From a bacterium (GTDB lineage: Bacteria; Armatimonadota; Zipacnadia; Zipacnadales; Zipacnadaceae), in assembly GCA_030603495.1 (NCBI GenBank), contig JAUVXR010000001.1, positions 4,993 through 68,992 of the forward strand: DNA of 64,000 nt. The letters are read 5' to 3'. The translations under genes and the position numbers were made by a program. This document shows, in pieces, positions 5,092-48,928 of this stretch; position 1 is the stretch's first letter, and every line of letters begins with the position of its first letter. A model generated the notes under the pieces. It saw only the letters and a list, made by a program, of their open reading frames with translations. It had not been told where the DNA came from and made no database searches.

Positions 5092-5111
5092 CTCTTGTAC
5101 TCTCCTTTGTG

Positions 5112-5135: not shown

Positions 5136-5567
5136 TTGGAGCGTCCGCCGCGTCGCCTCAAGGCCACGCTATTGGCAGATCGACTCCTTCGCTACTCATC
5201 GCCGCGAGCTCTGTTAGCAGAGATGCTTTGCGGCGATGTACTTCTTGTGTCGGCCTCGGGAAGGCCTGAGCTCGACATTGTGCCCCGGGCCACCTCCTTT
5301 CAGAGCGTGTATTGTCAAGGTAGGGCCAAACAGCACCGCCTCTCGGTTCGTTGGACAGCACTATGACCCACGTGGGACCAAACCTATTACAACCCTGTAC
5401 TGTCACAATCGCTATCATACCCAAAAAACGTCGACAAATGGGGTGACTACCTCTCGGTGGTGTATTTCCTCTGCGAATGGTGTAAATCCACTTTCTAGGG
5501 GGGCTTGACGGGTGGAACAAGGGGGATTGTGGGCGGCTGAGTTAGTATCTACGCCCGTGCAGTATCC

Positions 5568-8251: not shown

Positions 8252-8288
8252 TGTGCGGTTTCACTATCACCTTTGGTGTCTTGGGTAT

Positions 8289-33782: not shown

Positions 33783-35457
33783 CCACATCCCAGCTAGCCT
33801 TCCAGGCCTCGCCTTCGCCTGGCAAGTCCACACCCTCTAATGCTCCCGCTATTTCTGGTTGCATCACCTTGTGGTCTGTGCTCGTGCTGTTCCCGAAGTC
33901 AGGGTGCCCGTCGAATACTTGGGCAAATGTCGTCCACCAGGCCCTGGTTGCTTTGTTAAGTTCCCGGAGCCAATCTCCAGGCTCTTTCTCACCGTTAGCT
34001 TGCTGGATACTCCATACGCTATTGCTTAGAGCTTTGGTGGTGACAGGATCTGTTACGGGTTGGCCCTCTGCTTCTAATGAACTCTTAACCTTATCACTTG
34101 CATGGGCGGCATTTACCTTTTGCAAAACCTGGTCGGTGGCTTCCTTGACTTGTTTGTAAGCCAGGCCTACACATTTGCGGATCATGTACGGCGCTTCCTC
34201 GGTTTGCCGTCCAGATTCCCTGGCTGTCTGCCACTGCCTGCGGAGCTCTTTTGGAGTAGGCTGATTTGATTTGCTTGCTTCCCTGCTTTCAACGTAGGGC
34301 AGATAACACGGAATCCCTACTTGGCTAAGGGGCTGCGTCCGCTCTATGAAACCATCTGCCGCTCCTACGAGGGTTGCTTCATCGTCTGTGTCCCACATGT
34401 TCAAAGCGTCAGACAATACTCCCAGCCACTCTATCCGACACTGATTCTCGAATTCGGCGCATTCCACCATAAACTCAAATGATCTATCAATCGCCAGATA
34501 GTTAAGGAATATTGCTGCACGGCGTTCTGTGAGCTCGATTTCTTCCGAACCAGTTCGTTGGCGCCAGAATCGTTCAGCGGCCTCCAGGTATGTGTCTACA
34601 AGGCGCTCTATCACGATACGGGGGCCCCACAGTTCTTGATCTGATGCAAACGCAGTCGTCACTGCGTCCTCGTCTTGGAATGCCGAGCGCATCCTGTTGC
34701 CATTTTGTGTCCAGCCACCAATTGGCGCCGCCGCCAGAATCGGTACTCTCCGCCTGATGGTCGAGCTCTGCGGTACAAACGGGATCGGGCCATAGCAGTA
34801 CGGCGAGACAGCAATGCTACTCTTATAGCTCATCGCGTAGCGCTCTAAGTCTTTAAACAGATTGGCAAGCGTCTTGTAAGCCAGCGAACGGGTGATTCCT
34901 TCTTGTAGGCAATTGAAGCGCATCTGTAGCAGTCTCAGTGTGTAGTTGATTAGGGCCAGGTCCCTAGCTACCTGAGCCGCTGCTAACGTGTCCACGACTT
35001 CGAATTCTACCGCACGATGGGCTTTGTCCTGGCCTTTGAACTTGAGTACCAACCTGGCTAGACCGGAAGATAAGCTCTCTTCAGCTATCTCCCCAGGAAG
35101 ATACAGACGGACGCGATACCTCTTTTTTGTGCTCTCATCATGAATAACGCCATTCTGTGGTGAAATCATGCCGTGATCAAGCAGTATGTCTAAGCAGCGA
35201 CTAATCCCATGTGCAGATACGGTGCCCGCCAGGACTTGCTGCAACTGAGTAAATGAAATACCTTTTCTCGAGTTTCTCTCATCAATGAACTGTCGGGCGG
35301 TTCTGATCTTGGAGAAACTTAGCTCTGACTCGTCATCCGGCCTTTTCTCACGCTGCCCAACATGTTCATAAATAGCACAGGCAACGAAAATCTCTTCAGA
35401 AAACATCTGTGTAGGCTTCACTTGCTCAAATACGAAATCGCCGACTGGTGTGTCCAC
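33742..35457 (-). CDS. hypothetical protein (571 aa) with an N-terminal winged-helix-like segment; last gene of the pyr/PRTase operon
   Basis: Its start overlaps the stop of the upstream PRTase gene by 1 nt (35457). The N-terminus has ISFTQLQQVLAGTVSAHGISRCLDILLDHGMI (wHTH-like). The remainder is unassigned. Confidence 0.55.
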   Translation of the reverse strand: MDTPVGDFVFEQVKPTQMFSEEIFVACAIYEHVGQREKRPDDESELSFSKIRTARQFIDERNSRKGISFTQLQQVLAGTVSAHGISRCLDILLDHGMISPQNGVIHDESTKKRYRVRLYLPGEIAEESLSSGLARLVLKFKGQDKAHRAVEFEVVDTLAAAQVARDLALINYTLRLLQMRFNCLQEGITRSLAYKTLANLFKDLERYAMSYKSSIAVSPYCYGPIPFVPQSSTIRRRVPILAAAPIGGWTQNGNRMRSAFQDEDAVTTAFASDQELWGPRIVIERLVDTYLEAAERFWRQRTGSEEIELTERRAAIFLNYLAIDRSFEFMVECAEFENQCRIEWLGVLSDALNMWDTDDEATLVGAADGFIERTQPLSQVGIPCYLPYVESREASKSNQPTPKELRRQWQTARESGRQTEEAPYMIRKCVGLAYKQVKEATDQVLQKVNAAHASDKVKSSLEAEGQPVTDPVTTKALSNSVWSIQQANGEKEPGDWLRELNKATRAWWTTFAQVFDGHPDFGNSTSTDHKVMQPEIAGALEGVDLPGEGEAWKASWDVVIRSSSEIDECFR

Positions 35458-36476
35458 TATGCCTCACCTACCAGTTCTATGGTTCTATCAACTACGCTGA
35501 CCACTTCGTCCTGTAACAGGAAGTAACAGCAGCGCACAATCCGTTCATTGAAGCCTTGAAGTGCGACATTCATCCCTTCTTGTCTCAGTTCTGGGAGTGC
35601 TCTTCTAAGAAAACGGACCCCAAGCTGCAGGGATAGGTTGAAGTTGGCGCAATCCTGGCACAGTTCTGCCGAAGTAATTCCCCTAAAACGGTCCATGAAA
35701 GCGCAGAATCTCACAGCAGGTGTTTCGCCAAAACACAGATTCGCTCGCGGCTCTTCTACCTCTTCCCGATAGAATGCCATCGGTACACAATGAATCTTCC
35801 CATCCCCCTCGACGTACAGACGGATCTTGACAACACCCTCTGGCACAAAATGGGACGGGGCCGCAATGCTCGCCGATATAGACTCGTTTGGAAACAGAGA
35901 TGTATGGAGGACCCCTTCGTGAACTTGCCTAGCGGCGTAGTGCTCCAGCGTCCCAAACTCTCTCAGAGCCTGCCAAAACCGCTCAACTTCCAAGTTATCG
36001 CAACCGAGTTGTAAAACGACATGATCGTAGTCCAGGGGAAGACATGTCTCGTGGAGCAGTTCATTGAGGTCCGCTATCAGCAGCTGATAATCTCGCCCCC
36101 GAGGAATCTTCCAATAGCTCTTAGCGTAGTGGTCTGGAAGCAAGTGCAGTGGGACGTCTTCCCGGACCGCCAGCACAGCGACTTCGACCTTGGCGCCAAC
36201 ATTCTCCAGGAATGCCTTGGCCAAAGCTATCTGTCTGCCTGTTGCTATGGCGTCGTCCAGCACGACTATTTTCTTTCCTGCAAGTCCCCACCATGGATAG
36301 TAAAGGATCTTGTCACACACAATAACCTTTTCAATGATTTGTGCCTCATCACCCACTGCGATGCGCAACAGTGCGAGGCCCTTCCGTCCCACAGCAAATA
36401 TGTGGTCAAAGTCCTTTCTCAGGACCAAATCAATGAACTGCTGTATTTCATGTTCGAGCTCGCCGAATGCCTTCAT
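35457..36476 (-). CDS. phosphoribosyltransferase (PRTase type I fold) domain protein with Cys-rich C-terminal domain (339 aa); paralog of the C-terminal half of 46734-48614
   Basis: The PRPP-binding loop is GKKIVVLDDAIATGRQIA (compare canonical VLLVDDVxTTGxT). The C-terminal domain carries C-x5-C ... C-x2-C. Aligned blocks with the 626-aa protein: FDHIFAVGRKGLALL~CDYVVAIARKGARLL, GKKIVVLDDAIATG~GKKVLLFDDTVSTG, VVKIRLYVEGDGKIHCVPMAFY~ACKIRVYVDVGGCLSIVPIIF. Its start overlaps the stop of the upstream CN-hydrolase-like gene (ATGA). Confidence 0.7.
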   Translation of the reverse strand: MKAFGELEHEIQQFIDLVLRKDFDHIFAVGRKGLALLRIAVGDEAQIIEKVIVCDKILYYPWWGLAGKKIVVLDDAIATGRQIALAKAFLENVGAKVEVAVLAVREDVPLHLLPDHYAKSYWKIPRGRDYQLLIADLNELLHETCLPLDYDHVVLQLGCDNLEVERFWQALREFGTLEHYAARQVHEGVLHTSLFPNESISASIAAPSHFVPEGVVKIRLYVEGDGKIHCVPMAFYREEVEEPRANLCFGETPAVRFCAFMDRFRGITSAELCQDCANFNLSLQLGVRFLRRALPELRQEGMNVALQGFNERIVRCCYFLLQDEVVSVVDRTIELVGEA

Positions 36477-38191
36477 TGTTTGCTCCTGATACCAACGGCC
36501 CGAACTCGCCCTATCTTGTCTGGAAACTCTTCTACAAAAACCTGCACTATTGCCTCTGTCTCCGTCAATCCAGCCTCTTTTTTCCTTGCTATCCGGGCGA
36601 TGACTTCTTCCTCAGAGCACTTCTGTAGCAATTCCCTTCGACATCGAGTCACCGACCAATCGTCTCTTTTACTCAAATCATGCTTGTCCACATACTGCCT
36701 TCGCACAGACGTGTGGTTGACTTCCCTCTGGCGTTCTTTACACCACCCTATTCTGTCTGCCAGGCTCCGGTAGTCCGCGTGTTCCGGGCCGATTTCATCC
36801 GCGATTAGTGTCAAATACTTACTGAATTCGGACAGTTTGACGTACTGAAGCTCTTCCAATGTCTCGCCTGTCAGCGTTATCGCCCATGTGCGCACAAACC
36901 TATCCCATGTCGATAGGTTCACATATTCCTCATTGGAGAATACAGAGCGCAGCCGGGACACCAGGACCTCGTTTCCAAGATATCGGGAAAAGAATGTATG
37001 AGCTTCTCGGCTGGCATACAACGCCATCCGTTCATCACTAAACCCGTGGGCCAACAGGTCGCCCAGCAAAGTCCGGTAAGTGATTTCCCTGCCGAACTTG
37101 TCCGGTATCGTCTCTGAGTCGTAGTGCACAGGAATGAGAGCCACGGGACTGGTGGGCACGGGCTTTGGGACAAGCCCAAGAGTCCGATCGAGGTTCTGTC
37201 GTTCTGGTCTCGGGTCAACGTCCACTACTAGCATACCCTCGAATCCTGGGTCGAGGGGCCCATACATAGTGCCCTGACATCTCTCGTCGGTCAGCTGCTT
37301 GGTGTCGTACCAGGCTATGAGTGTGCTGCATCCAAACTCTGCATTATTGGCGAAAACTACTGGCTTTTGCCATTTTTTGATGCTTATATCAAACATATCC
37401 CAGAATTCTTGTCCTGTCTTGACCCGCTCATCGCTGCTTGGCTTGGAGATTGGAGTTGAAGCAACCACCACGTGGAGTGGAAACTCCGGGCTCGAGTATT
37501 CGGCGCAGTCTGGCGGATGCTCATTGCACAGGAAGACAACTGTTTTGTACGCTCCTACCTGACATTTGAAGTGAAAGGGGCCCTTTCCTTTCTTCATGAC
37601 GCGGGTTTCATACTGACTAGCATCTCTCTTGCCTCTAATGGCAGTATCGCCATCTGGTAAGAAGACCGGGCATAGGTTCTGCCGACGGTACTCCTCTTCG
37701 TCAATGGCAATACCTGCCTTCTCATAAGCGCCGTTTCTGATATCCTTGGCTCTGACATAGTGGGATCCCGCTATAATAGTCATTGGAGCTGCACGTGCCT
37801 TGCTCGCCGTATCCTGAAGACATCGGGCAGGTACGGAGAGTTCTGGGAAAACTACGAGATCGCAGCGCAAAAGTTTGCTCAAATCCAACACTTCTTGTAC
37901 TCGTTCTGCAACCCAGTCTATGTGACTGTTCTCCACAACTTGTTGAGAGTCTGTCACCGCCTGTTCTACCTCTTCGTCCTGCAGGCCCCTGGCCCAGCAT
38001 GTAATCGAGGAAGTTGGGGCCTTCCGCAGATTTTCCCAGCTATCCACCTCGCGGAGGGGATCAATGTAGCTTCCGGGTTCCTCCTCCACAGGAATCCATG
38101 GGATTGACCTAAGCTGAGCAATCGCTACCCTGAGGTGGTTCTTTGATGGCTTTGCTAGTGGTTCCAAGCTTCCCGAATTCGCGTGCATCAT
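36473..38191 (-). CDS. carbon-nitrogen hydrolase (nitrilase-superfamily)-like N-terminal domain protein with large C-terminal extension (572 aa); tentative
   Basis: Begins HLRVAIAQL. A Glu motif is present in DLVVFPELSVP. A candidate Lys follows, with a candidate Cys in TVVFLCNEHPPD, in E-K-C order and spacing like nitrilase-fold enzymes. It is paralogous to 43975-45900 (VFPELSVPARC ~ ILPELAAPQEC). The C-terminal roughly 300 aa are unassigned. Confidence 0.45.
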   Translation of the reverse strand: MMHANSGSLEPLAKPSKNHLRVAIAQLRSIPWIPVEEEPGSYIDPLREVDSWENLRKAPTSSITCWARGLQDEEVEQAVTDSQQVVENSHIDWVAERVQEVLDLSKLLRCDLVVFPELSVPARCLQDTASKARAAPMTIIAGSHYVRAKDIRNGAYEKAGIAIDEEEYRRQNLCPVFLPDGDTAIRGKRDASQYETRVMKKGKGPFHFKCQVGAYKTVVFLCNEHPPDCAEYSSPEFPLHVVVASTPISKPSSDERVKTGQEFWDMFDISIKKWQKPVVFANNAEFGCSTLIAWYDTKQLTDERCQGTMYGPLDPGFEGMLVVDVDPRPERQNLDRTLGLVPKPVPTSPVALIPVHYDSETIPDKFGREITYRTLLGDLLAHGFSDERMALYASREAHTFFSRYLGNEVLVSRLRSVFSNEEYVNLSTWDRFVRTWAITLTGETLEELQYVKLSEFSKYLTLIADEIGPEHADYRSLADRIGWCKERQREVNHTSVRRQYVDKHDLSKRDDWSVTRCRRELLQKCSEEEVIARIARKKEAGLTETEAIVQVFVEEFPDKIGRVRAVGIRSKQ

Positions 38192-38265
38192 AGATGCACC
38201 CCCATATTATGGCACTGATGATTCAATCTTGGACTTTGGGAACTCCGCGTGTGAAAGTGGCTCAG

Positions 38266-38931
38266 TTATGGGTGAAAGCTGTAACCCCCGTCTTTGTGCC
38301 AGGTCTCAGGGTCCGCAAGGTAGGCCCTGATCGATTTGTGCTCCTCTTGTGTCAAGTACCCGCCACTCATGCCGAGAGTCAGGCACGTCTCCAAGTCTGA
38401 TAGTCCGTGGAGTTGCACCCCAGCCTGCTGCAAGCGTCCAAGTCCGCCCTGCTGTCTATCGAATATGACGAGGCAGTCCGTCACTGAGCACTCGGCACCC
38501 CGAATTCCTTCGATAAAGGTGATTTTGCTCCCCCCATCAGTAATCAAGTCCTCACACAGTAGAACCGTTTTCCCTGATGGCAAGTGACCCTCTATTTGCG
38601 CCCCGACTCCGTGGCCTTTGGGCTCCTTTCGGACGTACACCATAGGCTTCCCAAGCCGGTCAGCTAGCCATGCAGCATATGGGATACCGGCAGTCTCTCC
38701 CCCTGCTATGTAGTCTGCCTCGATTCCAACGTCTTCGTAGAGCCAGTGAGAACATCCAGTCACGATGCCGCGTGCCCACGGGTACGAAATCAGAACTCGG
38801 CAGTCTACATAAATTGGGCTCAGGTTGCCAGAGACAAGCCTGAAAGGCTCCTCGACTGAGACCTTGACTGCGGAAGTCTCCCACAGAAGACTTGAAATGG
38901 TGTCTCTAACCTGCTCTCTCACCGCTGTCAC
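38266..38931 (-). CDS. pyrE: orotate phosphoribosyltransferase-like (PyrE family)
   Basis: FRLVSGNLSPIYVDCRVL matches the OPRTase N-terminal hood. The PRPP loop is GKTVLLCEDLITDGGSKI followed by IFDRQQGG, closely matching E. coli PyrE (GKRVMLVDDVITAGTAI ... LDRQERG). It overlaps the upstream pyrF-like gene by 26 nt. Confidence 0.7.
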   Translation of the reverse strand: MTAVREQVRDTISSLLWETSAVKVSVEEPFRLVSGNLSPIYVDCRVLISYPWARGIVTGCSHWLYEDVGIEADYIAGGETAGIPYAAWLADRLGKPMVYVRKEPKGHGVGAQIEGHLPSGKTVLLCEDLITDGGSKITFIEGIRGAECSVTDCLVIFDRQQGGLGRLQQAGVQLHGLSDLETCLTLGMSGGYLTQEEHKSIRAYLADPETWHKDGGYSFHP

Positions 38932-39673
38932 CTTCCGTTTCGAAATGCAATGCTATTTGGCAGAATGCTCCCGCGGCTTGGGTAACGTCGGCTGCCTTGT
39001 AGATACCGGAGCCGATTATGGCATACGCGGGGTGTCCCAATGTTGCGGCAAACGCCGTCTCGATATCGCCGCCCTGTCTTCCTATTCCCGGCAACAAGAA
39101 GCGAGGTGTTTGTATGGCCCCGCCAATCAACTTGGCATATTTCTCTACTGCACCAGGCCGGTTGCCAGGGACAACGAAATGAGTGACTCCTATATCAGCC
39201 GCAACTTTATACATTCGGGCAGGGGCATCATCACTGAGGTACCCGCCGTCCTTCGACAAGTACCGAGGATGAGTCATCTCTCCGCCTACGATAGCTATCA
39301 TGCCCTGTCCGATAATAGCGCGAAGCAGCGCCTCTTCTGTTTCTGGTCCTGCCTGAGGAAATACGATCGCGGCTGCGACTCCTGCCTCCTGCCAAACGCG
39401 CGTGAACTCTTCCGCAAGTTGAGGTATATCCGTGCCGGCCTTTTGATGATCATAGAGAATTGGCAGATTGGACTGCTCCTTTATTGCTCCAACAACATTG
39501 GCAAGTCCATATGTTAGACCCAGAATAGCACCTACCTTGTACCCTACTATCCCATTGACGGTGCTTGTAGCTCCCACGAGCTTCGCGAGTTCGTCTAGGG
39601 TCTCCACGTCGCAAGCAGGAATGATTCCGTAGTCTCTCTCAAAGAGCCTTTCTTCGTTGTGTATTGCCTTCAT
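38906..39673 (-). CDS. pyrF: orotidine-5'-phosphate decarboxylase family protein (divergent PyrF-like)
   Basis: ILYDHQKAGTDIP aligns to the D-x-K-x-x-D-I-P catalytic loop but with one extra residue in each spacer. LLPGIGRQGGD matches the PGIGAQGG phosphate-binding loop. The 255-aa length is typical. Divergence from the canonical motif is noted. Confidence 0.55.
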   Translation of the reverse strand: MKAIHNEERLFERDYGIIPACDVETLDELAKLVGATSTVNGIVGYKVGAILGLTYGLANVVGAIKEQSNLPILYDHQKAGTDIPQLAEEFTRVWQEAGVAAAIVFPQAGPETEEALLRAIIGQGMIAIVGGEMTHPRYLSKDGGYLSDDAPARMYKVAADIGVTHFVVPGNRPGAVEKYAKLIGGAIQTPRFLLPGIGRQGGDIETAFAATLGHPAYAIIGSGIYKAADVTQAAGAFCQIALHFETEGDSGERAG

Positions 39674-40209
39674 TGTTTTCCTCCGCTAGACGTTTCGGGC
39701 GCCAGTGGTGTGTTTCATAATCCACTGGACGCCAAGTCCACTACATGGACCGGACGGTCGAGTCACCCCAACACGCTTGGTGCCTTTTCCCCATCCTATT
39801 CTCCGTGGCCTCCGGTGTCAATATCTCTGCTGCCGGTACAGTTCGCCGTTGCACCTCCTTTCTCCTGCTGAGAACTTGCTGCCCTCGGCCCTAGCAGACA
39901 TCCACCGGCCGCAGCTTGCCAGCGCTTCGTGATAGTGCTGGGGGTTGCACCTGTTATAGAAGCAGGCTACCACTCGTTCGAGTTTTGCGGGTGAAGTATA
40001 GATCACCAGCCCCAACTTGGCTCTAGCAGTGTGGTTAAGCTGCTCGAACCTGACTATGGAGTTGCGTCGAGAACCACCAAATACTAACATGTGACCTGGA
40101 CTCGGTTTCGCACGCAAGGTGATATGAAGGGCCCGATTTCACAAGTATTCCGCTATGCTGGTCCCTGGCTTAATCTTCACATACACCCTGTTGCCTGACA
40201 CAGCACAAC

Positions 40210-43200
40210 TCACCGCACCTCTTCCACCTGCGTGCCGCGGTCGCTGCCACCCCATGTCAATCGGTACGCTCGAAACCGTACGACGTCATCCCGGTTCAGA
40301 CACGAGAACTTGGCTCGTGCCAGATGGAACAGCTCACTCCGGCCCGTGGTCACAATTATCTGCATGCGTTCAGCAAGGACTCTCAACAAGTCCAGCAGTC
40401 CGTAAATATTGAGTTCGTCCATCGCCTGCACAGGGTCGTCCAGTATGGCGAGTCTTAGTTGTCCTTCACGAGAAAGCGCCCCCGCCAAGAATGCTGAAAG
40501 TGCGATCAGATTCTGCTGCGCCTCGTTCATATAGGCCTGCACCAGCTTGCGATCGCTAACCGACTGGGATGTGGCTCCTCGCCTGGACAAAGCCCAGAAC
40601 CGGAGGCCGCTCTCATCGACAGTCCAGCTTATGTCGTCAAATACGGGATGGCGTGCGAGTCTTCGATGAATGGTTCTCATTAGATCTCTCAGCGGCTCGA
40701 GTCCCTCTCGAACCAGCCGAGCTTGCTCGCGCTCCACAAGGCGACCGCATTCTTTACCGGCATGTTCCCACCGCTTGTTCTCGGATATCTTCGCATCTGT
40801 CTCCTCTATTCTACGCTCGAGGTTGGCCATTTGTCCGTTAAGCTCTGCAAGCTGTCGCCGTGCCGATCTGACCTCGATAAACGCCAGAGCGGCACGACCC
40901 TCACGAATCAGATCTTCAATATGAGTAAGTTCTCGGCGAAGATCGTCTACTGAGCCGGCCTCTTCCTTGTCGGCTTGGGCGGCCGTTCCTTGTAGCACTC
41001 GCAGGTCGCTTTCGATTATTGTCGCGAAGTCACGCGTTTGCTGAAGTGCAGCACGGGCCGAACTTGCGGCCTCCCGAGCTGGTGCCAGGGCCGCTAATTC
41101 GTGTTCCAGCTGCTCAACCATCTTTGCCTTCTTCTTCTCCACTTCAACGGCACGATCAGCATGAGCTTGTTCCTCAGTCTGTATCTGCTCTACTTGCTGG
41201 CCCAATTCAGCCTCATCGGCTGATGGGTGCCACGCGGCGGCCTCGAGCCGCTCTCGCGCCTGCTCCATGTCTTCCGCCAGCGGTACCCGCTGGGCCCGCA
41301 ACTCACGGAGCTCACTTTGTATGGCTTCGCGATGCTCGGTCGCTCTATGAAGGCCTTCCCCCAACTCGAATGTCTGCGCTTGGAGCCGCTGCTCCTCTAT
41401 GTGTACCAGTTCAAGGGCCTTTAGCCATTCCTTCTGCTCGCGTGCGACATCCGCCGCCGTCGTATCAGGCGGGAGATCACAACCGGCCAGGGCTTTCACC
41501 CGCTCATCCTTACGCCGAGTTAGTCTCTCGAGTTGAGACTCGAGCTCCCTCTTCCTAGTCTCGGCTACGCGTAGGGCTGCCTCGGACTTCTCAAGACGCT
41601 GTCCCGCTTCGGCAAGATTTTCCCGCGCCTCGTCCCGACGCTGAGCCAAATCGCTCTCTTCTCTCGTAGGGGCGCCAATCTGCCGGTCTATCGCTGCCAA
41701 CAGGCCCTCTCGGCTAGGCCATTTGTGCGAACACAGTGGGCACTCGTTGCTGTCAGCGCCCTCCTGAAGCTCCCGCAGAATCTGAGCCCGGCGCTCCCGA
41801 CCGGACCGTACTTCAGCAAGCGCACGCTCAAGATTCTCAAGACGTATGGCCTGGCAGTCTCTTTCTTGCCTGTTTGCCAACACTTCTTCTGTGGCTGCAT
41901 AGACAGCGTGCTCTGCACGATCGTCCTCGGTAACTGCGCCCGCGTAACGCTCTTCCCTCTGGCCGTCAGCCTCCATTAGGCTGCGAAGCTTCGACAGCTT
42001 CTCAACCCGCGAGCTTGCTTCTTCGTGACGACGCTTCGCCTCTTCGACCACCGGCCGCAATGAGAATAGGCCCTCATTTGCTTCCCCTATATTGGCGCTT
42101 AGTTCCGCGCTTCGCCCCTCAAACACACCAATCTGGTCCGACATCTCGGCAAGACGCTTGCCACGTCGCGCCACCAACGGTCTTTCCCGAAGCCACCATT
42201 CGATCGCTTCCCGCCGCTGCGTACATTGCGCGCTTCTCTCTGCAATGCTCTTCAGAGAGTTCTCCAGTACGACGAGCGCTTCACGTAGTTCGCTTTCCCT
42301 TTCCGCCGCGTTCTTGCTCCGGCACTCAGCCGCTGATAGCTTCTCGGTCTCTTTATCGATCTCAGAGCGTACTGATTCAAGCTGTTGGCGAAGTTCCTCC
42401 AAATGAATCGTTCGGTTTATGGTCTCCTGCACGCTTCGACGCTGCATGTCTAGGTGCTCGGTCACCTGCTCAACAACCGCTGCAAGAGACTGATCGTCAG
42501 TAGGCCTCTCGTCGAGAATGCCATGAATACCCGCTGGCCTATGATATTCGGTGGTGCCTCGCAAAAACTCCTCCGGTTCACCTACAGCGTCAACACCCGC
42601 GCCAGCTTTCTCTACCAACACCGCCTCCGAACGTTGTTGGTCTCTCAGGCCGGCCATCTGCTGGTCGAGCGACTCTTTTTCCTTCTGCAGGCCTGCCTCC
42701 GTCTTGGAGAGTTCCTGTACGATGGATTCCAACTTCCTTGTTGTCCGTGCCAGCCCGCGGTCCCCCAGCAGACTCGCGAAGTGAGCCAAACGCGCCTTCG
42801 GGTCCTTCGTCGAGAGCAGTTGTTTCATCTGGCCCTGTCCCAGAAACAACCGCGCGCTGCATCGCGCGCGCAGTTCAGCTTCTCGTTCGTACGTTTCAGG
42901 GGCCACACCGAGCCACTGCCGCCAAAGTGCGCGTTCATCGAGCGGCGCCTCTTCGTCGAACTGCCGGCGCCCCGCCTCTTCCTCGACACAGTGAAACATC
43001 TGGCCAGCGGCAGCACGGAGCGTAACGTCAGCCGCTTGATCCTGCATGAACAGATTCCGTAGTGGTGAGTCGGTTGTCTCCGGCATCGCCTCGGTCGCCA
43101 CCTGATCCGCGAGCTCGACCACGGCCCCGCAGATCGCCCACTCCAAGGCTTGAACGAAGCTAGTCTTTCCTGTGGCATTCTCACCGTATAGCAGTGTAAT

Positions 43201-43974
43201 GTCCGAGGACAAGTCCACCCGGACCGGACTTGCTCCATCACCTACACGGAACGACCGGAAATTGTGCAATGTGAGATCCTGCAATCGAACCCCGGACCCC
43301 GAGCGTCGGGACAGCTTCTGCCTCCGCGCATCGCCTTCACCCCCTACCAGCTCCTGGTCAAGGTCCACAGTAGACTGGATCGTCGGAGCCCTTCCGTACG
43401 CACCTCGCATAATCTCCTGTGCAATCTGGTGCACGCCAGGCCGTGTACCTGCCAAACCGTCGGCCAGCTCGGCAGGTACTCCAGCCTCGCGCAGGAGCCT
43501 CGCCACTGCTGTCTTGCTAGACTCGGCAATAGGGGCCGACTGCGCAAGGGGCACAAAGGTAAGGTCCCCGAGTTGATCTGGCCACTCGGCACCATCATAA
43601 CTCACAACCTCCTTCATGCACTCGCTTCGAGAAGTCCTGATTCTGTGAAGGAGCGCTTCGCGCATGTCCAACGGCACACTGTCGAGCGATCTGACATCGA
43701 CCAGAAAGAGTAGGTAGGCGTCTGGCCCGATACCCCCGCGCAAATGCCATTGACGCACGATCGATCCTAGCTCATGCTGCGCCTCTTGCCATCTCTTGCT
43801 CAAGCGGTCCCACGTCTCGCAACATTGGATCCCGAGCACGCCGCAAGGGAAGCTGTACACTGCCTCTAATTCGTCCGTCTCCACCGTTGACTCCCTATGC
43901 AGTTTCAGATCAAGACCGCTCAAGCGTCGCTCGACTTGCGCAAGCAAATCATCGCGATGCAACCGTACTGTCAT
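40210..43974 (-). CDS. SMC/SbcC/RecF-like ABC ATPase with long coiled coils and a roughly 230-aa N-terminal extension (1254 aa)
   Basis: Walker A is ITLLYGENATGKTSFVQALEWAICG, at about residue 250. About 800 aa of E/R/L/A/Q-rich coiled coil follow. The C-terminal D-loop/Walker B is LAILDDPVQAMDELN. Its start codon is adjacent to the stop of the upstream 641-aa gene (43974/43975). Confidence 0.75.
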   Translation of the reverse strand: MTVRLHRDDLLAQVERRLSGLDLKLHRESTVETDELEAVYSFPCGVLGIQCCETWDRLSKRWQEAQHELGSIVRQWHLRGGIGPDAYLLFLVDVRSLDSVPLDMREALLHRIRTSRSECMKEVVSYDGAEWPDQLGDLTFVPLAQSAPIAESSKTAVARLLREAGVPAELADGLAGTRPGVHQIAQEIMRGAYGRAPTIQSTVDLDQELVGGEGDARRQKLSRRSGSGVRLQDLTLHNFRSFRVGDGASPVRVDLSSDITLLYGENATGKTSFVQALEWAICGAVVELADQVATEAMPETTDSPLRNLFMQDQAADVTLRAAAGQMFHCVEEEAGRRQFDEEAPLDERALWRQWLGVAPETYEREAELRARCSARLFLGQGQMKQLLSTKDPKARLAHFASLLGDRGLARTTRKLESIVQELSKTEAGLQKEKESLDQQMAGLRDQQRSEAVLVEKAGAGVDAVGEPEEFLRGTTEYHRPAGIHGILDERPTDDQSLAAVVEQVTEHLDMQRRSVQETINRTIHLEELRQQLESVRSEIDKETEKLSAAECRSKNAAERESELREALVVLENSLKSIAERSAQCTQRREAIEWWLRERPLVARRGKRLAEMSDQIGVFEGRSAELSANIGEANEGLFSLRPVVEEAKRRHEEASSRVEKLSKLRSLMEADGQREERYAGAVTEDDRAEHAVYAATEEVLANRQERDCQAIRLENLERALAEVRSGRERRAQILRELQEGADSNECPLCSHKWPSREGLLAAIDRQIGAPTREESDLAQRRDEARENLAEAGQRLEKSEAALRVAETRKRELESQLERLTRRKDERVKALAGCDLPPDTTAADVAREQKEWLKALELVHIEEQRLQAQTFELGEGLHRATEHREAIQSELRELRAQRVPLAEDMEQARERLEAAAWHPSADEAELGQQVEQIQTEEQAHADRAVEVEKKKAKMVEQLEHELAALAPAREAASSARAALQQTRDFATIIESDLRVLQGTAAQADKEEAGSVDDLRRELTHIEDLIREGRAALAFIEVRSARRQLAELNGQMANLERRIEETDAKISENKRWEHAGKECGRLVEREQARLVREGLEPLRDLMRTIHRRLARHPVFDDISWTVDESGLRFWALSRRGATSQSVSDRKLVQAYMNEAQQNLIALSAFLAGALSREGQLRLAILDDPVQAMDELNIYGLLDLLRVLAERMQIIVTTGRSELFHLARAKFSCLNRDDVVRFRAYRLTWGGSDRGTQVEEVR

Positions 43975-45900
43975 TTACTCGTCACCTCCCCGCGCCAGGC
44001 CCGGCACCTGTGCCAGGACGTGCCGCAGGCCCTCTCCTATAGCGCAAAGATCGTCTGCTCCATCCTCAAGCACGCAGTCCTCGATCGCCTGGATCGGTAT
44101 AAGCAGCAACGTAGCACGAGTTATATCTAGGTCATCCAAATCCTCACTGATAGGATAGGTCGATGCGCTCGGTCCTGTCAACCCTCCTAACGGTATGGCC
44201 TGGACCTCTAACTGTCCCCTCACACCGCATATGAGGTATATGTCCCCATCCTTCGCGTCCGAGCTAGCGTCCTCCACAACCCGTGCAGGAATATCGGACG
44301 ATAGCAAGTCACACCCATCGCGAGAATGTATCGACGGCCCGTTCTTTTCAAGCCGAACCGCCGCCCGTCTCCCCGTCGTACCTGAAATAGAAGCGGCTTG
44401 AAGGGGGAACCATGCATGTACCATTGTAAGTCCTGCAACAAGATGGCGAAGCCGATCTACATGGGTTGAATCCCAGGTGTCGGGTTGGGGCTTCAGATCA
44501 TCCGGCCAAAAAACGAAGGCTTCCTGCCCCAACATCTGCAGGCACTCGCCATTGATCCCCCAGCAGACTCGTCTCAGTTCTTCGTAGCTATTTCTCAGAC
44601 GCTGATAGAGCTGCTCCTGCACGGGACTCTGTTGAGACGGCTCCAGAAGATCCGTTCCGGTACTCGACCGCAGTTCGCATGGAAAGCCTCGCCAAGCCGC
44701 AAAGCGATATGCTTCGGGCACTGCCGCAGCGTCGCTAGTAAAGTCAACTCGGCCGTCAGACGGACGGATGCCTAGCCAAAGCCCCCCGGTAACAGGCTGA
44801 ATTCCGGCCGCGCCAAAGGGCCCCGGCGTCCGTGAGGGGAGCCGCGCTTTGACTAAGAATGCTGATGCCCGGCGAGGTCTGAAGTCATAGCGAACGATGC
44901 TCTCACCGCGTCTACAACAACACTCAGGCGGGTCCTTCGCGTATCTACGATGCCCGCCAACCAATATGCCGGTGCAACCGTACTCGTCACGTTCCTCGCA
45001 AATTGCTGCGGCGTTGACCCTCACGACACTTGCACCCGAAACGGCCGCGCCCACCGCTTGTGGCGAATCCACAAGTAGCCGATAGAAGCCTGCCGCCATG
45101 AGTTCATGGTCAGGCTTTTGGTTATGCTGAATGTGGATGATCGCATCAAGCGTCCTGGGTGGCTCATCCCCCTGGAAATGCTCCACGATGCCCTGCGCCA
45201 CTGAGCACCCGCCGTCAGCCCCAGGTGCGTCCACGTTGAGCATGTCCGAGCAGATGGTGAAAGCGAAGGACGCCTGGTCAATCACCAGAATGTGGACGGT
45301 TTCGCCAGCACAGAGCGATTCCCGTTCTTGAGCACTCGGGCTGATCTTTCTCTGGAAGACTACGCCTGGTTCGCCATGCCGATCCCGCCAAGCGATCAGC
45401 ATTGCGTTGACCCAGCTAGCGCTCGGGGATGCACGTGCCGCCATACGCCTGAGCTCTTCGTTCTGCCATTCTTGATCCGTCGCATAATCTTGCACAAATT
45501 GCTCATATTCTTCCCGGCTCAGGCGCTCGATACCTGATACGACAAGCATGCCCGGATCCGTCTGCGCCTCCGCGACTGCCTCCAACAGCCCTCTCACGCA
45601 TTCCTGCGGAGCCGCTAATTCGGGCAGGATTGCGGCATGAAGAGGCTGGAAATTCGCCGACACGCGTTCCTCCGGGTTAAGGACCAACTCGATGACTGAG
45701 TCGACGACTTGCTTCTGGTTGTCTCTCGAGTCACCCTCGATACGGCCCACTTCATCGCCGCTCTGAACAACAGCATAAAGAGGCTGTACAAGCAGGAAGT
45801 TAAGGTCTCCAGCAGGATTCCAGCCCAGATCTACTGTGTTAGTCCTCGGTTCCATGTCAAACCTCGCCCTGCGGACACGCGCGGTATGTCGCCTTGCCAC
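43975..45900 (-). CDS. CN-hydrolase (nitrilase-superfamily)-like protein, paralog of 36473-38191 (641 aa); tentative
   Basis: Shares HAAILPELAAPQECVRG with VFPELSVPARCLQD and TVHILVIDQASFAFTICSDML with TVVFLCNEHPPD of the 572-aa protein. It is co-oriented and contiguous with the SMC-like gene. Confidence 0.4.
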   Translation of the reverse strand: MARRHTARVRRARFDMEPRTNTVDLGWNPAGDLNFLLVQPLYAVVQSGDEVGRIEGDSRDNQKQVVDSVIELVLNPEERVSANFQPLHAAILPELAAPQECVRGLLEAVAEAQTDPGMLVVSGIERLSREEYEQFVQDYATDQEWQNEELRRMAARASPSASWVNAMLIAWRDRHGEPGVVFQRKISPSAQERESLCAGETVHILVIDQASFAFTICSDMLNVDAPGADGGCSVAQGIVEHFQGDEPPRTLDAIIHIQHNQKPDHELMAAGFYRLLVDSPQAVGAAVSGASVVRVNAAAICEERDEYGCTGILVGGHRRYAKDPPECCCRRGESIVRYDFRPRRASAFLVKARLPSRTPGPFGAAGIQPVTGGLWLGIRPSDGRVDFTSDAAAVPEAYRFAAWRGFPCELRSSTGTDLLEPSQQSPVQEQLYQRLRNSYEELRRVCWGINGECLQMLGQEAFVFWPDDLKPQPDTWDSTHVDRLRHLVAGLTMVHAWFPLQAASISGTTGRRAAVRLEKNGPSIHSRDGCDLLSSDIPARVVEDASSDAKDGDIYLICGVRGQLEVQAIPLGGLTGPSASTYPISEDLDDLDITRATLLLIPIQAIEDCVLEDGADDLCAIGEGLRHVLAQVPGLARGGDE

Positions 45901-46733
45901 CTTACCTGGCAGGCCCAGTCCAGAGCGCCTCCTCCGCCCCTGCCATACCGTCCATAGTCAGCCGTCGATCCGCCCTGCGTTCTCTTCTCCTCCTCTGTAC
46001 GCCCTTCTCATAACCCCCGTCGGTGACATCCACGTCCTGACACGCGCCGGTATTGCGTCCGTTAGCTCGCATACGTTCCTTGGAGTCTTCTCTCAGCCAC
46101 AACTTGGCCCTATTTCTCCTCTCTGTCAACCTTCGCGCCCGACTGCTGCAAAGCTTCCTTCACCTTCATCTTCAGCGTCTAGTTGCCAATATTGTTTTCC
46201 TCGACGCTTACACCAGCGCAGTCTCGGCCCCTCGCACCACAAAGACACACCTCTCGATGGACCTCTCACTCGGCACGCTGAACAGTCTGGAGACAGTATC
46301 GCGCACGGTGCCTTCTTTAGGTCGCTGAGTTGATATTGAGAATACCACGGATGGCGAACTTTGACAAGAATACGCGATTCTGCACACAGCAGGCCTTAGT
46401 ATGCGATGCGGAGACCCTAGCCCAAAACCAATCCCAGGGGCAGCGTCAGTATTTACAGTTCGCGGCCCAAAAAGCATGGTAAGGTAATCACCAGAAAGAA
46501 CTCAGGCAGGAAGGCGTAGCCAAGCAGCAGGAGACGCAGGTATTATCGTAGCAACGGCGAAAAGAAGACCGTGTATCGACACAGCGCACTTGACTATCGA
46601 CCACCAGCAGCAGTGGTGGCCTGGCCATGGCTGCAGGACCCCCGGCCCTCGTAGACGTCTACGGGACACAGCTCGCCCAGTGACAGCTAACTGAGGGGAT
46701 CCAACTACCATTGCTCCACGACCCTGCAGTTCT

Positions 46734-48614
46734 TCATTCGTCGCAGCATTCTGTCCCCTGGCTCAATATGCTCAGGACATACTGCAGGGCAAAAGGCGTC
46801 CGGTCCCTGAAATAGATAGCGAGTTGATCTTCATCCACTAGCCAAGACCCTATACTCATGCCCCACTTGGTGATAGTCTCGTTGGCGAAGGCAACGAAGG
46901 CAGCCCCAAGTCGAACAGATCCATGAAAATCCGAGCATTCGAGACACTGCTCTGGCTGATTACCTCCATACCAGCTCGAGGGTAATCTCTCACAGAATGG
47001 CATCCCCCATTCTCTCCGTCCCTTGCAGCTGGCGACTTGTTCAGGGGTTGGGTGTGTAATCTCTGGAAAGATAATAGGTACAATGGATAAGCAACCGCCC
47101 ACGTCTACGTATACCCTTATCTTACAAGCAGCCGACTCAGACACAAAGGAAGGCACCAAGACGTTCTTCGAAGAGAAGAACGTCGGGTTACTGACGGTCA
47201 ACAGCCGCCTGCCGAAGACTCTGGCTGTCGATGGTAACGCGAACAAGATGCCAGCAGATTGCAGCCACCCATAGCAAGCGTGAAGATCGAAGTTCTCGGT
47301 GTCCATTTGTATGACGGTTCTTCCAGGCTCAAACGGTGGGCACAGCGCAGCTAGGCTTAGCGCGATAGCCGCCTCTTCCTCTGCGTACTCATCTCTATGT
47401 AGTATTTTCCAGAAGACCCCCTGTCTAGCGTCAAGCAGTGTGGGCTCGTCTGCAGACAGCAAGAGGGCGCAGGGTGTAACCCGTGCACCTAGCTCTTGCA
47501 GGCGGCGTGCTGTCTCCACTATCCTGGTCCCGGTGCTCACTGTGTCATCAAAAAGCAACACTTTCTTCCCTTGGAACTCAGTGCCAGGTACGTGACCCAG
47601 CACGGGGAGTGGGATCAGAGCAGTTGCGGGCATGTCGTTCTGCTTCAGGACTTGGTGAAGTAGACGAGCGCCCTTCCTCGCAATAGCGACGACATAATCG
47701 CAGTTGTCCTTGACCGCCGCCTTGAGAAACTCGCCTACGCCTTCGAAGTACTGTTCGATATGAGCAGCAGTAAATGCCCCCGCTGGATCAAGGGCAATGT
47801 TGACCCCTTTCCTCAGTATCTCACCGGGTCGATATCTCCTCGTGTATGTCTGCTTGGTCACCCCTTCGCAGGCCTCAGTTGGTTTCGCGACCCCAACCGG
47901 AACGAGAAGCCCCGTTTCTAGCAGCGTGTCCAGAGCCTCACTGATCTGCTCGGGGGTGAGCCAACCCAGCCCTTCCTTTAATTCAGAGACAGAAAGCCCC
48001 GGCTTCTCGGTCGAGGTGACTGCACCAGTCAGATATCCCAGAATCGCCTGACAGTTGCCGAGATCAGGTTCCGAGAGGTGCACGTCGGATGGCGGGAGGA
48101 GCTTCTTATGGAATCCGGCCTCTACCATAAGAGAGACGATGCGATCCAAGTCTACGACTTCCACAGGAACCGGGTTCCTGGAGTTGTAGTCATGCACGCT
48201 CCGCTGCGCTTCGGCCGTCAGCTTCCCGTTGAAGACGAGTATGTACCTCTTAGGCCACTTCTCATCTACTTCGTGATGATGAACGAAGTGATCCATTGCG
48301 TCACTGAATTGGGGCTTAGCTTCGGTTCTCCATCGTGCTTCGGAAATGTCGCCCGTCTTGATTTGAACCAGCAGAACCTGAGTTGTGCCGAGCACATCAA
48401 GAGCTCCAGGCACTATGGCCACGATGTCCTTGCCGTGTTCCGACGAGCCGTGAATGATATCGCTGCGCAGCCGCTGGGCCTGAAGGAACCGGTTAACGAC
48501 GTCGCGCAGCTCCTCCTCACGCAGGGAGCGCAACAGGGCACCTAGCTCCTCAGCCCACCGAAAGTCGCTCTGCTCTGTCATCGGAATCCTCCTCCCGGAA
48601 CACCTCACGGGCAT
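46734..48614 (-). CDS. fusion protein: N-terminal restriction-endonuclease-like (Mrr/PD-(D/E)xK-like) domain, central region, C-terminal PRTase domain with Cys-rich tail (626 aa)
   Basis: The N-terminus has HGSSEHGKDIVAIVP ... VLLVQIKTGDI, a D ... Q-x-K arrangement like Mrr-type nucleases. The PRTase loop is GKKVLLFDDTVSTGTRI. The tail has CLECSDFHG and other Cys. The C-terminal half is paralogous to 35457-36476. Confidence 0.6.
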   Translation of the reverse strand: MPVRCSGRRIPMTEQSDFRWAEELGALLRSLREEELRDVVNRFLQAQRLRSDIIHGSSEHGKDIVAIVPGALDVLGTTQVLLVQIKTGDISEARWRTEAKPQFSDAMDHFVHHHEVDEKWPKRYILVFNGKLTAEAQRSVHDYNSRNPVPVEVVDLDRIVSLMVEAGFHKKLLPPSDVHLSEPDLGNCQAILGYLTGAVTSTEKPGLSVSELKEGLGWLTPEQISEALDTLLETGLLVPVGVAKPTEACEGVTKQTYTRRYRPGEILRKGVNIALDPAGAFTAAHIEQYFEGVGEFLKAAVKDNCDYVVAIARKGARLLHQVLKQNDMPATALIPLPVLGHVPGTEFQGKKVLLFDDTVSTGTRIVETARRLQELGARVTPCALLLSADEPTLLDARQGVFWKILHRDEYAEEEAAIALSLAALCPPFEPGRTVIQMDTENFDLHACYGWLQSAGILFALPSTARVFGRRLLTVSNPTFFSSKNVLVPSFVSESAACKIRVYVDVGGCLSIVPIIFPEITHPTPEQVASCKGRREWGMPFCERLPSSWYGGNQPEQCLECSDFHGSVRLGAAFVAFANETITKWGMSIGSWLVDEDQLAIYFRDRTPFALQYVLSILSQGTECCDE

Positions 48615-48928
48615 CTGCGCTCCGAGTATGCCATCGCTGCGCTATGAATGTCAAGATCAAGACCCGGACCCAGATACGTCCTTAACCCGCTGAAACGGCC
48701 TTCTGGCGCCATGGGCGGCCACTTCCGTTCGCGGCGCGCCGGGTGCATCCGCCTGTCGTGCAGTTGAGGAACCCTCTTCAGAACGCGTGAAGCTGCCAAC
48801 ACATGCGCACACTTTGCACAAACCTCGCAAATATTATCGCCACAACTCACTGCGTATCGGACGGGATCATGAGCCGCTCTCGTTGTCGATGCAAGCATTC
48901 TCACCGAGGCCCTTGTGGCGCCGGACAT
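48605..48928 (-). CDS. small Cys-rich hypothetical protein (107 aa)
   Basis: Has a CGDNICEVCAKCAH cluster. It overlaps the start of the 626-aa gene by 10 nt on the same strand. Weak support. Confidence 0.25.
   Translation of the reverse strand: MSGATRASVRMLASTTRAAHDPVRYAVSCGDNICEVCAKCAHVLAASRVLKRVPQLHDRRMHPARRERKWPPMAPEGRFSGLRTYLGPGLDLDIHSAAMAYSERRCP

Follow-up and report, generated by a model that had tools for sequence, protein, structure and literature searches.

The locus and its three units

The DNA considered here is a window of 64,000 nucleotides (nt) from a bacterium of the Armatimonadota (positions 4,993 to 68,992 of contig JAUVXR010000001.1), and its subject is a phosphoribosyltransferase (PRTase)-like protein with a four-cysteine C-terminal domain, here called PRTase-Cys, that occurs in the window once within a five-gene cassette and once fused to a nuclease. 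Between positions 33742 and 48614 lie three adjacent, separate units within a defence-gene-rich region, not one system, and all their relevant genes are on the minus strand. The first unit is the cassette (33742-39673), which encodes PyrF, PyrE, a nitrilase-like protein, PRTase-Cys of 339 amino acids (aa) and a winged-helix/helical protein of 571 aa. The second is a Lamassu LmuA/LmuB pair (40210-45900), and the third a solo gene (46734-48614) for a 626-aa protein, which is a single-protein derivative of the PRTase-Cys module with an Mrr-type nuclease and a winged-helix region fused in front. The cassette is apparently undescribed: full-text literature searches that combined PRTase, orotidine monophosphate (OMP) decarboxylase or orotate PRTase with defence terms found no description of it, and PRTase-Cys, the 571-aa protein and the cassette were matched by no PADLOC (2023) or NCBIfam (2026) model beyond the generic loop that binds phosphoribosyl pyrophosphate (PRPP).

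The genes of the cassette are tightly packed. The open reading frames (ORFs) of pyrF (38906..39673, 255 aa) and pyrE (38266..38931, 221 aa) overlap by 26 nt, and a spacer of 75 nt leads from pyrE to the gene for the 572-aa nitrilase-like protein (36473..38191); this gene overlaps the start of the 339-aa ORF (35457..36476) by 4 nt, and the latter shares 1 nt with the gene of the 571-aa protein (33742..35457). A consensus scan placed a promoter-like site upstream of pyrF (39793..39821, minus strand; TTGACA-17-TAGGAT, 10 of 12 matches), and in the same scan the fusion gene (46734..48614) had promoter-like and terminator-like sites of its own, the latter a hairpin at 46568..46585 (minus strand) in the 834-bp gap before lmuA; such sites are weak evidence. 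The two intergenic stretches, 45901-46733 between the fusion gene and lmuA (834 bp) and 39674-40209 between lmuB and pyrF (537 bp), are without a convincing ORF, and they gave no Rfam match, only consensus promoter- or terminator-like sites.

A preliminary description of this DNA had noted three PRTase-domain proteins between 35457 and 48614; their ORFs are on the minus strand, and all three do match Pfam PF00156, PyrE at 44.6 bits, PRTase-Cys at 27.1 bits and the 626-aa protein at 25.8 bits. The idea of a simple expansion of PRTase proteins is not supported, in that PyrE is no further paralog but a normal orotate phosphoribosyltransferase that forms an integral part of the family's neighbourhood. 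All proteins of the window are singletons in the protein collection.

The PRTase-Cys family

The 339-aa protein consists of a minimal type I PRTase core (residues 1 to ~140) followed by a C-terminal domain with PLDxDH, KxR and four-cysteine (Cys4) motifs. It shows no similarity to PyrE past the common fold. With residues 293-589 of the 626-aa protein it shares 25% identity over 301 residues (BLASTP, E 3e-22), which bears out the earlier suggestion that the two are paralogs; as they are only 25% identical, they do not stem from a recent duplication. The cysteine-rich tail that had been attributed to both is likewise real: C248, C258, C273 and C276 of the 339-aa protein correspond to C530, C541, C557 and C560 of the 626-aa protein. 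The PRPP loop is intact in both paralogs, reading VVLDDAIATG in the former and LLFDDTVSTG in the latter, that is, with the acidic DD pair followed by xxxTG.

Word-indexed searches for homologs, whether begun with the 626-aa protein, the 339-aa protein or the family alignment, brought back little but the query itself, and the family came to light when 1.84 billion cluster representatives were searched exhaustively with HMMER. This gave 127 matches, of which one was full length (P0003), about 85 covered the nuclease domain only and about 40 covered the PRTase-plus-Cys module, so that PRTase-Cys amounts to ~40 clusters among 1.84 billion representatives. A tblastn search of plasmids with the 339-aa protein found no match, and two alignments, A1 and A2, diverged too far to seed a scan of loci.

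The conservation of individual residues was counted over 42 family members. The acidic pair of the PRPP loop is kept in 39 and 41 of them, and G80 in all 42; the R-K-G loop upstream of the PRPP loop is kept in 39, 35 and 38. Right behind the PRTase core follows the D-x-D/E-H motif (35, 31 and 36 of 42), and further on K217-x-R219 (40 and 42 of 42). The cysteines, spaced C-x~10-C-x~15-C-x2-C, are present in 32, 37, 30 and 37 members; the tail is putatively zinc-binding, and the protein may on these grounds be described as a candidate zinc-binding PRTase-like protein. Some members (P0053, P0020) have G-K-[AS] and Q-D in place of R-K-G and D-D. Between the R-K-G and PRPP loops, where type I PRTases have their catalytic flexible loop, the family alignment shows a short stretch without conservation. 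Compared with solved PRTases, the family profile matches over only the first ~110 positions (best 1vdm, E 2e-8), and it also matches weakly the PRTase domain of the PurR repressor (1p4a; positions 7-134, E 1e-4). The C-terminal domain of ~200 aa has no recognised relative. PRTase-Cys thus forms a protein family of its own, a rare one, whose PRPP-binding loop is intact.

Family members occur in four forms: alone (~335 aa), extended (~450-515 aa), as the N-terminal part of proteins of ~1000-1160 aa, and as the C-terminal part of a nitrilase-like protein (P0020). Several of the ~1000-1160-aa proteins carry an HTH_17/MAD1-like domain in front of PRTase-Cys, and in P0039, P0050 and P0071 this HTH_17 domain is confirmed by Pfam. 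Among the ~1100-aa forms with a known or presumed N-terminus of this kind (P0050, P0071, P0039, P0110, P0123) the Cys4 motif is mostly lost (five of six cases), and most forms without the HTH_17/MAD1-like domain retain the four cysteines. This hints that the Cys4 element and the helix-turn-helix (HTH) may be functionally interchangeable, for example in that both bind nucleic acid.

The fusion protein

The 626-aa ORF probably starts in truth at M12 (48581), the public gene call being of 615 aa. An ORF of 107 aa with a C-x2-C...C motif (48605-48928, minus strand) ends 24 nt before this probable start, and may be spurious.

Residues 12-176 (48087..48581, minus strand) make up the Mrr-type PD-(D/E)xK nuclease domain, with D63, Q84 and K86. 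When these residues were scanned alone they matched Pfam Mrr_cat (PF04471) at 22.8 bits against a gathering threshold of 21, over model positions 2-115 of 115, a match that did not appear in the whole-protein scan at E<=0.01, and the N-terminal ~150 residues of the protein match the N-terminal part of the PADLOC OloB model (E 1.8e-8). An AlphaFold2 model made from a 63-sequence alignment has a predicted local distance difference test score (pLDDT) above 90 for residues 11-176 (an earlier model from 3 sequences, with pLDDT 41, was not used), and its best solved match in Foldseek is MspJI (E 2.4e-4, probability 1.0). D63...Q84-x-K86 is conserved across ~50 relatives. The domain thus has both the fold, with its alpha-beta-beta-beta-alpha-beta core, and the D...(E/Q)xK residues of an Mrr-like PD-(D/E)xK nuclease, so that the assignment first made from the sequence alone stands after structure prediction and domain scan.

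The region that follows (residues ~181-290; 47745..48074, minus strand) is putatively winged-helix-like; it gave weak Pfam matches to HTH_20 (E 0.0019), MarR_2 and RPA_C, and its pLDDT is 57-81. The PRTase-Cys module then occupies residues 293-626 (46737..47738, minus strand), with the PRPP loop FDDTVSTG and the four cysteines. In the model its C-terminal domain (residues 430-620) reaches a pLDDT of ~90, and the PRTase core (residues 300-426) is poorly modelled, with values below 50. Both the 626-aa protein and P0003 have a degenerate E-x-G-R where the family has D-x-D-H.

In the search for homologs of the fusion, which the preliminary description had proposed, P0003 was its sole full-length relative among the 1.84 billion representatives, with 43% identity, and lies on a contig of 2.4 kb that shows no neighbour. 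The ~85 relatives of the nuclease domain only include stand-alone proteins of ~170-200 aa and proteins of ~520 aa, a length that fits OloB. When genome contigs were scanned with the 626-aa protein and P0003 as seeds, the only match was a relative of the N-terminal domain from Bryobacterales, and the fusion was not found in a scan of viral contigs.

Association with the enzymes of UMP synthesis

The first gene of the cassette encodes a divergent, archaeal-like OMP decarboxylase. PyrF matches Pfam OMPdecase (PF00215) at 47.9 bits against a gathering threshold of 27, the NCBIfam equivalog cut-offs not being reached. By comparison with the OMP decarboxylase of M. thermautotrophicus it keeps D22, K46, Q200, 'EMTHP' and 'PGIGRQGGD', and it has a variant D75-x2-K78-x3-D82 motif. 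In locus L061 a member of this PyrF family closes a full pyrB-pyrI-pyrD-pyrK-pyrC-pyrE-pyrF operon, so that fold, active-site residues and a role in the pyrimidine pathway all agree with OMP decarboxylase. The possibility that the gene encodes a diverged enzyme other than PyrF was rejected in view of this operon and of the fact that the cassette copies do not form a separate clade. The second gene, pyrE, is identified as orotate phosphoribosyltransferase by the curated model TIGR00336 (109.7 against a cut-off of 106.8); with PRK00455 it scores 213 bits, below the cut-off of 245.

PRTase-Cys adjoins pyrF-like and/or pyrE-like genes in every context look-up that reached neighbours, at seven loci outside the window and at three more found through pyrF. 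The seven were chosen from the PRTase-Cys side, independently of pyrF, and the three (L004, L037 and L051) came from a metagenome scan seeded on PyrF, which returned 80 loci; L090, whose contig ends short of the expected pyrFE position, and L084 and L085, whose contigs are too short for neighbours, were left out as uninformative. On the contig of P0061 (L002/L003) a row of OMPdecase-like, OPRT-like (orotate PRTase-like), nitrilase-like and PRTase-Cys genes, with products of 449 aa and 258 aa at its end, repeats the gene order of the window, and there PyrF is 51% identical to that of the window, the remaining genes only ~25%. L004 has the cassette with pyrFE at the opposite end, in L037 pyrF and pyrE are separated by another OMPdecase gene of more canonical type (10721-11713), and in L051 a SIR2_2 gene (11426-12490) stands in place of the nitrilase-like gene. 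The archaeal contig L087 shows a minimal form of pyrF, pyrE and PRTase-Cys with no amidase, and L088 has a divergent OMPdecase, a SLOG protein (LDcluster4), an OPRT-like protein and PRTase-Cys, as well as an HD-CE protein (SLOG/HD-CE at 1218-1748 and 5298-6026). In L086 and L091 a fusion of ~1120 aa is followed by pyrF, in L092 a fusion of 981 aa is followed by pyrF and pyrE with a 4-nt overlap (the contig is short and an amidase was not seen), and in L093, the locus of P0020, pyrE is convergent.

Gene order therefore varies, pyrFE being upstream in some loci and downstream or convergent in others, and since stop/start overlaps are also frequent, the link between PRTase-Cys and pyrFE appears to be functional and not due to chance. 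The window PyrF is 43-54% identical to the PRTase-Cys-adjacent PyrF of L002, L004, L037, L051, L087 and L092, and the window PyrE is 55% and 51% identical to the cassette PyrE of L037 and L051, respectively. PRTase-Cys itself is only ~25% identical between loci whose PyrF are 43-57% identical. Ordinary UMP-synthase genes are in this way the obligate neighbour of a rare, fast-evolving module (UMP, uridine monophosphate). The reverse does not hold: the PyrF family gave more than 500 metagenome matches, mostly without PRTase-Cys, which is carried by 5 of the 80 best pyrF loci, and at most loci the neighbours of this PyrF family are ordinary ones, such as Lhr helicase, PAS/GAF proteins and old yellow enzyme.

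Partner proteins and gene fusions

The 572-aa protein, a candidate effector, is nitrilase-like (C-N hydrolase-like) with a long helical C-terminal part. It matches the PADLOC models RT_UG5-nitrilase (1.3e-8) and RTasNitrilase (1.4e-7), and a comparison of five homologs shows conservation of the Glu of a 'VFPE' motif and of Cys222, which is invariant within C-[NS]-[ED], with a Lys/Arg plausibly aligned. The N-terminal part of P0020 is homologous to it (E 4e-16), and P0020 is a true fusion of a nitrilase-like protein with PRTase-Cys, since in L093 its reading frame runs without a stop to the end of the contig and contains 'NLCPVFLPDG', a sequence also found in the protein of the window.

The 571-aa protein has a winged-helix-like N-terminus (residues ~16-120) and a helical core, and no relative of it was found in Pfam, PADLOC, NCBIfam or the PDB; profile searches of the PDB with the 571-aa family and with the 572-aa protein gave no match. 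It is homologous to the region behind PRTase-Cys in the ~1000-1160-aa fusions P0071, P0050, P0110, P0039 and P0036, and to genes downstream of PRTase-Cys in L037, L090, L085 and L093. Its N-terminus matches the small proteins L87_172 and L88_121, both of which also match residues 199-274 of the 626-aa protein, and there is mutual relatedness among the N-terminal ~100 residues of the 571-aa protein, the small protein of L087 and L088, the C-terminal extension of PRTase-Cys in L002 and L004, and residues 199-274 of the 626-aa protein. The element that they have in common is winged-helix-like.

Because gene fusions of each kind exist, PRTase-Cys is functionally tied to both the nitrilase-like protein and the 571-aa protein. 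The accompanying enzyme is exchangeable, being nitrilase-like, SIR2, SLOG, an Mrr nuclease or none.

The Lamassu pair and the surrounding region

Between the cassette and the fusion gene lies the Lamassu system, assigned for this pair of genes only on the basis of an LmuB ATPase adjoining an LmuA effector. LmuB (40210..43974, minus strand, 1254 aa) is an SMC-like ATPase (PADLOC LmuB E 9.8e-62; Pfam SMC_N and AAA_23), and its gene abuts at 43974/43975 that of the LmuA-like protein (43975..45900, minus strand, 641 aa; PADLOC LmuA PDLC03850, E 1.8e-14). The N-terminal region of LmuA contains the motifs 'ILPELAAP' and 'FTICSD', which recall the 572-aa nitrilase-like protein ('PEL..P' and 'ICSD' in common). 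That LmuA carries a nitrilase-like effector related to this protein could not be established (hhalign probability 5.8%).

Beyond the fusion gene, a ParB-HTH-like gene (49166-49750) and a XerC/D-like tyrosine integrase gene (49747-50673, minus strand) are found, with rnpB directly upstream. The latter is a bacterial class A RNase P RNA gene (50841-51347, minus strand; 278 bits), and its 507 nt, set against a model of 367 positions, carry insertions. This looks like an element integrated beside rnpB, and as to a duplicated rnpB 3' end that could mark an attachment (att) site, nothing was found in the window but a match of 13 bp (7069-7081), too short to be significant. The cassette of L087 lies right after RNase P protein genes, and that the island of the window lies beside an RNase P RNA gene is probably coincidence.

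Further defence-type genes on the minus strand are found at 8289-10415, 11508-13172, 23653-24996 and 26554-28593, and include two HerA/mad8-like ATPases (mad8 E 1.2e-19 and 1.8e-7), an E1-like protein (PADLOC E1-E2, ~5e-6) and a MoxR-type AAA ATPase. There is a second integrase at 20032-21327. The left two-thirds of the window look like a large defence island. On the other side of rnpB, a GHKL-type ATPase is encoded on the plus strand at 51514-53190 (HATPase_c_3, with weak PADLOC matches to TmtA and REase_II) and a phage portal protein at 55871-57112 (plus strand). Past 54 kb the GC content rises to 62-64%, which suggests that this part is a prophage or a different genomic segment.

A possible role in conflict

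The cassette can be read as a conflict system, anti-phage or toxin-antitoxin-like, in which PRTase-Cys would serve as a switch for PRPP or pyrimidine nucleotides that gates an effector, an interpretation we hold tentatively and would put somewhat short of an even chance. Such a system would combine PRTase and winged helix on the principle followed by the type III retron effector pair, and PRTase-Cys would bind PRPP or a pyrimidine nucleotide in the manner of the PRTase-fold regulators PurR and PyrR. The co-expressed PyrE and PyrF would set the level of the ligand, and PRTase-Cys would read the flux through this UMP-synthase pair. Infection would perturb that state, upon which the switch and its DNA-binding winged-helix partner would release the effector, namely the nitrilase-like hydrolase in the cassette and DNA cleavage by the Mrr domain in the 626-aa protein.

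A conflict system is suggested by the exchangeable enzymes (nitrilase-like, SIR2, SLOG, Mrr nuclease) and the HTH fusions, by the rarity and fast divergence of PRTase-Cys, and by the company it keeps, since the window also holds Lamassu, HerA/mad8-like and E1-like genes and two integrases, and the relative in L090 adjoins a fragment of an integrase-like gene (which, to judge from its sequence as read, resembles a tyrosine recombinase). The notion of a ligand switch draws on the conserved R-K-G loop, acidic pair and G80, and on the match of the family profile to the PurR PRTase domain.

Several observations weigh on the other side. The D-x-D-H and K-x-R motifs are so strongly conserved that they could mark a second catalytic site for which this interpretation has no use, and the PRTase core, itself poorly modelled, would fit a sensing and a catalytic role alike. 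The nitrilase-like domain of the 572-aa protein has no Pfam CN_hydrolase match. The PyrF genes of the cassettes are not a clade apart from PyrF in ordinary contexts, and for this reason the cassette may in some genomes sit beside the only pyrFE of the host. Lastly, the L087 cassette (1-9200) has as its neighbours archaeal genes for ribosomal proteins and for the RNase P proteins Rpp30 and Rpp14, a context that would also fit a housekeeping role.

The same parts could be put together differently. PRTase-Cys might be a catalytic toxin of the ShosT or PsyrT kind, which wastes PRPP or makes an unwanted nucleotide, with PyrE and PyrF as the metabolic antidote or competitor, either drawing PRPP into UMP or decarboxylating the product, so that shut-off or inhibition of the pair upon phage infection would unleash the toxin. 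The kept PRPP and R-K-G loops, the weak match to the PADLOC ShosT model (E 2.4e-4) and the SLOG protein in L088 would agree with this, SLOG proteins being a class that neutralises PsyrT- and ShosT-type toxins, and the stop/start overlaps with pyrF suggest that a fixed stoichiometry matters. ShosT disrupts purine metabolism upon host shut-off (PMC11961720). However, the similarity to ShosT extends only over the ~55 residues of the PRPP loop, the segment of the flexible loop is short and unconserved, P0053 and P0020 depart from R-K-G and D-D, and the need for extra effector enzymes (nitrilase-like, SIR2, Mrr) is left unexplained; a toxin of this kind is unlikely. A metabolic explanation would make PRTase-Cys and its winged-helix partner a split regulator of pyrF-pyrE that resembles PurR and PyrR and responds to PRPP or UMP, the operon of the window having been acquired horizontally. 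The neighbourhood of L087 is its best argument, along with the obligate adjacency to pyrFE, the helix-turn-helix domains that are fused or adjacent (HTH_17 in P0039, P0050 and P0071, and the winged-helix-like regions), the match to PurR, and the fact that cassette PyrF are ordinary members of a genuine PyrF family. Yet a regulator of housekeeping genes would hardly be so much rarer than its PyrF family (5 of the 80 best pyrF loci) or diverge so fast, links to nitrilase-like, SIR2_2 and Mrr domains and multidomain forms of ~1100 aa are unusual for a metabolic repressor, and the window copy lies between Lamassu and other defence-type genes with integrases near, which together leave this explanation unlikely. 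It is also conceivable that PyrE, PyrF, PRTase-Cys and the amidase form a small biosynthetic pathway for a modified pyrimidine nucleotide, either a second messenger or an antimetabolite that blocks phages, as with viperin or Ophion. The cassette does combine three nucleotide-building enzymes with a C-N hydrolase, its optional partners SIR2 and SLOG are nucleotide- or NAD-processing, and a PRTase is essential in Ophion (bioRxiv 10.1101/2025.09.30.679545). Against such a pathway, which we regard as improbable, PyrF and PyrE have not diverged from the housekeeping enzymes, which argues for ordinary orotate and OMP substrates, the amidase is dispensable (absent from L087, and not seen on the short L092 contig), there is no evident signal receptor or effector, and the large non-enzymatic 571-aa partner would be unaccounted for.

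Two further proposals concern the fusion protein. The preliminary description had seen in the fusion and the free 339-aa paralog a sensor/effector pair acting together, and in support of this it can be said that both lie within 13 kb on the same strand, that PRTases often form dimers, and that D-x-D-H, retained in the free paralog, is lost from the fusion, as might be expected if the two divided the work between them. The two are nevertheless separate transcription units with a complete Lamassu pair between them, their 25% identity excludes a recent duplication, and in the recovered sequence of the ten cassette loci outside the window there is no Mrr fusion. The free paralog instead belongs to the cassette, within which it is translationally coupled by overlaps of 4 nt and 1 nt, to both of whose partners it is fused elsewhere, and whose pyrF and pyrE it travels with, so that joint action with the fusion is very doubtful. 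Scarcely credible is the idea that the 626-aa protein serves the adjacent Lamassu as an additional effector. In some Lamassu variants the LmuA effector is of Mrr type, and the gene, with its Mrr-type domain, is directly upstream of lmuA on the same strand; but the system has a complete LmuA without it, no PADLOC LmuA model matches the 626-aa protein, and the gene has a promoter-like site of its own and is set off by the 834-bp gap with its terminator-like hairpin.

If the reading as a conflict system is carried further, PRTase-Cys cassettes might constitute a new immune or toxin-antitoxin-like class in archaea and bacteria, with the UMP-synthesis enzymes as the monitored or neutralising component, a disturbance of pyrimidines or PRPP as the trigger, and swappable effectors (nitrilase-like amidase, SIR2, SLOG, PRTase-gated Mrr nuclease); this wider proposition is speculative, with a chance that we judge below even. 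Type III retrons, ShosTA, PsyrTA and Ophion are known to use PRTase domains as effectors or toxins, little being known of how these are controlled. PRTase-Cys is unusual for its strict genomic link to both UMP-making enzymes, and its fusions with the nitrilase-like protein, the winged-helix partner, HTH_17 and the Mrr nuclease lay out the wiring of the module. Were it part of an immune system, it would show clearly that a defence module can enlist enzymes of core nucleotide biosynthesis, and the 626-aa protein would be a candidate for a nuclease regulated by a nucleotide or PRPP ligand. Were it a regulator of pyrFE instead, it would represent a new class of PRTase-fold regulators, chiefly archaeal.

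Comparison with known systems

The N-terminal 165 residues of the 626-aa protein share their fold and the D...QxK residues with Mrr, type IV and type IIS nucleases (AF1548, the FokI cleavage domain, MspJI, LlaBIII), from which the protein differs in having no DNA-modification reader of known kind and in being fused to a PRTase-Cys module. OloB of the Olokun system is likewise a PD-(D/E)xK nuclease (bioRxiv 10.1101/2025.07.10.664194); here the match to OloB is N-terminal only, and no OloA was found among 10 neighbouring proteins scanned with PADLOC, so that the protein is not assigned to Olokun. A four-cysteine motif combined with a PRTase-like domain also recalls ComFC, in which, however, the zinc finger is N-terminal and not C-terminal as are the cysteines of PRTase-Cys. 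There was no ComF match in NCBIfam or Pfam, and the 11 related loci hold no competence genes, their neighbours being pyrF/pyrE, nitrilase-like, SIR2, SLOG and winged-helix proteins; the locus is not ComF-like, an outcome that the preliminary description had named as one that would count against it.

With PurR and PyrR the cassette has in common the PRTase fold, matched by profile in the case of PurR, the combination with a nucleic-acid-binding element and the position next to nucleotide-biosynthesis genes. These regulators are without the Cys4 C-terminal domain, and PRTase-Cys is set apart from them as a very rare and fast-diverging protein with nuclease, SIR2 and nitrilase-like partners.

Among defence systems, ShosTA and PsyrTA are toxin-antitoxin systems that use a PRTase toxin (PMC11961720, PMC12961424); ShosT, a PRTase-plus-pyrophosphatase toxin, is set off by host shut-off and interferes with purine metabolism (PMC11961720), and a PRTase, OpnC, is essential in the nucleotide-modifying Ophion system (bioRxiv 10.1101/2025.09.30.679545). 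The likeness lies in a type I PRTase domain as the central player and, in one relative (L088), in a SLOG-type protein. ShosT is the only PADLOC defence model that the 339-aa protein matched (E 2.4e-4), over the PRPP loop only (residues 55-108), and its likeness to the sequences of ShosT, PsyrT and OpnC is limited to this loop. The window cassette contains no DprA/SLOG gene and is not a ShosTA or PsyrTA system; it differs by its additional domains and partners, and ShosTA is not described as having any link to UMP synthase.

The closest analogue of the cassette is the effector pair of type III retrons, in which a PRTase-like protein is paired with, and sometimes fused to, a winged-helix protein (Mestre et al. 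2020, PMC7736814). The cassette is not a retron, as the preliminary description had concluded: no reverse transcriptase domain was found in the ORFs of 33-51 kb, the RNase P RNA is the sole Rfam match in the window at gathering thresholds, PRTase-Cys has no significant match to the PADLOC retron PRTase models, and reverse transcriptase and msr/msd RNA are thus both missing from it. What the two share is the arrangement, for here too a winged-helix region accompanies the PRTase, whether encoded by the gene that follows (571 aa), attached behind PRTase-Cys (L002 and L004) or placed in front of it (626 aa). What sets the cassette apart is the extra C-terminal domain of ~200 aa with its DxDH, KxR and Cys4 motifs, and the obligate link to PyrE and PyrF.

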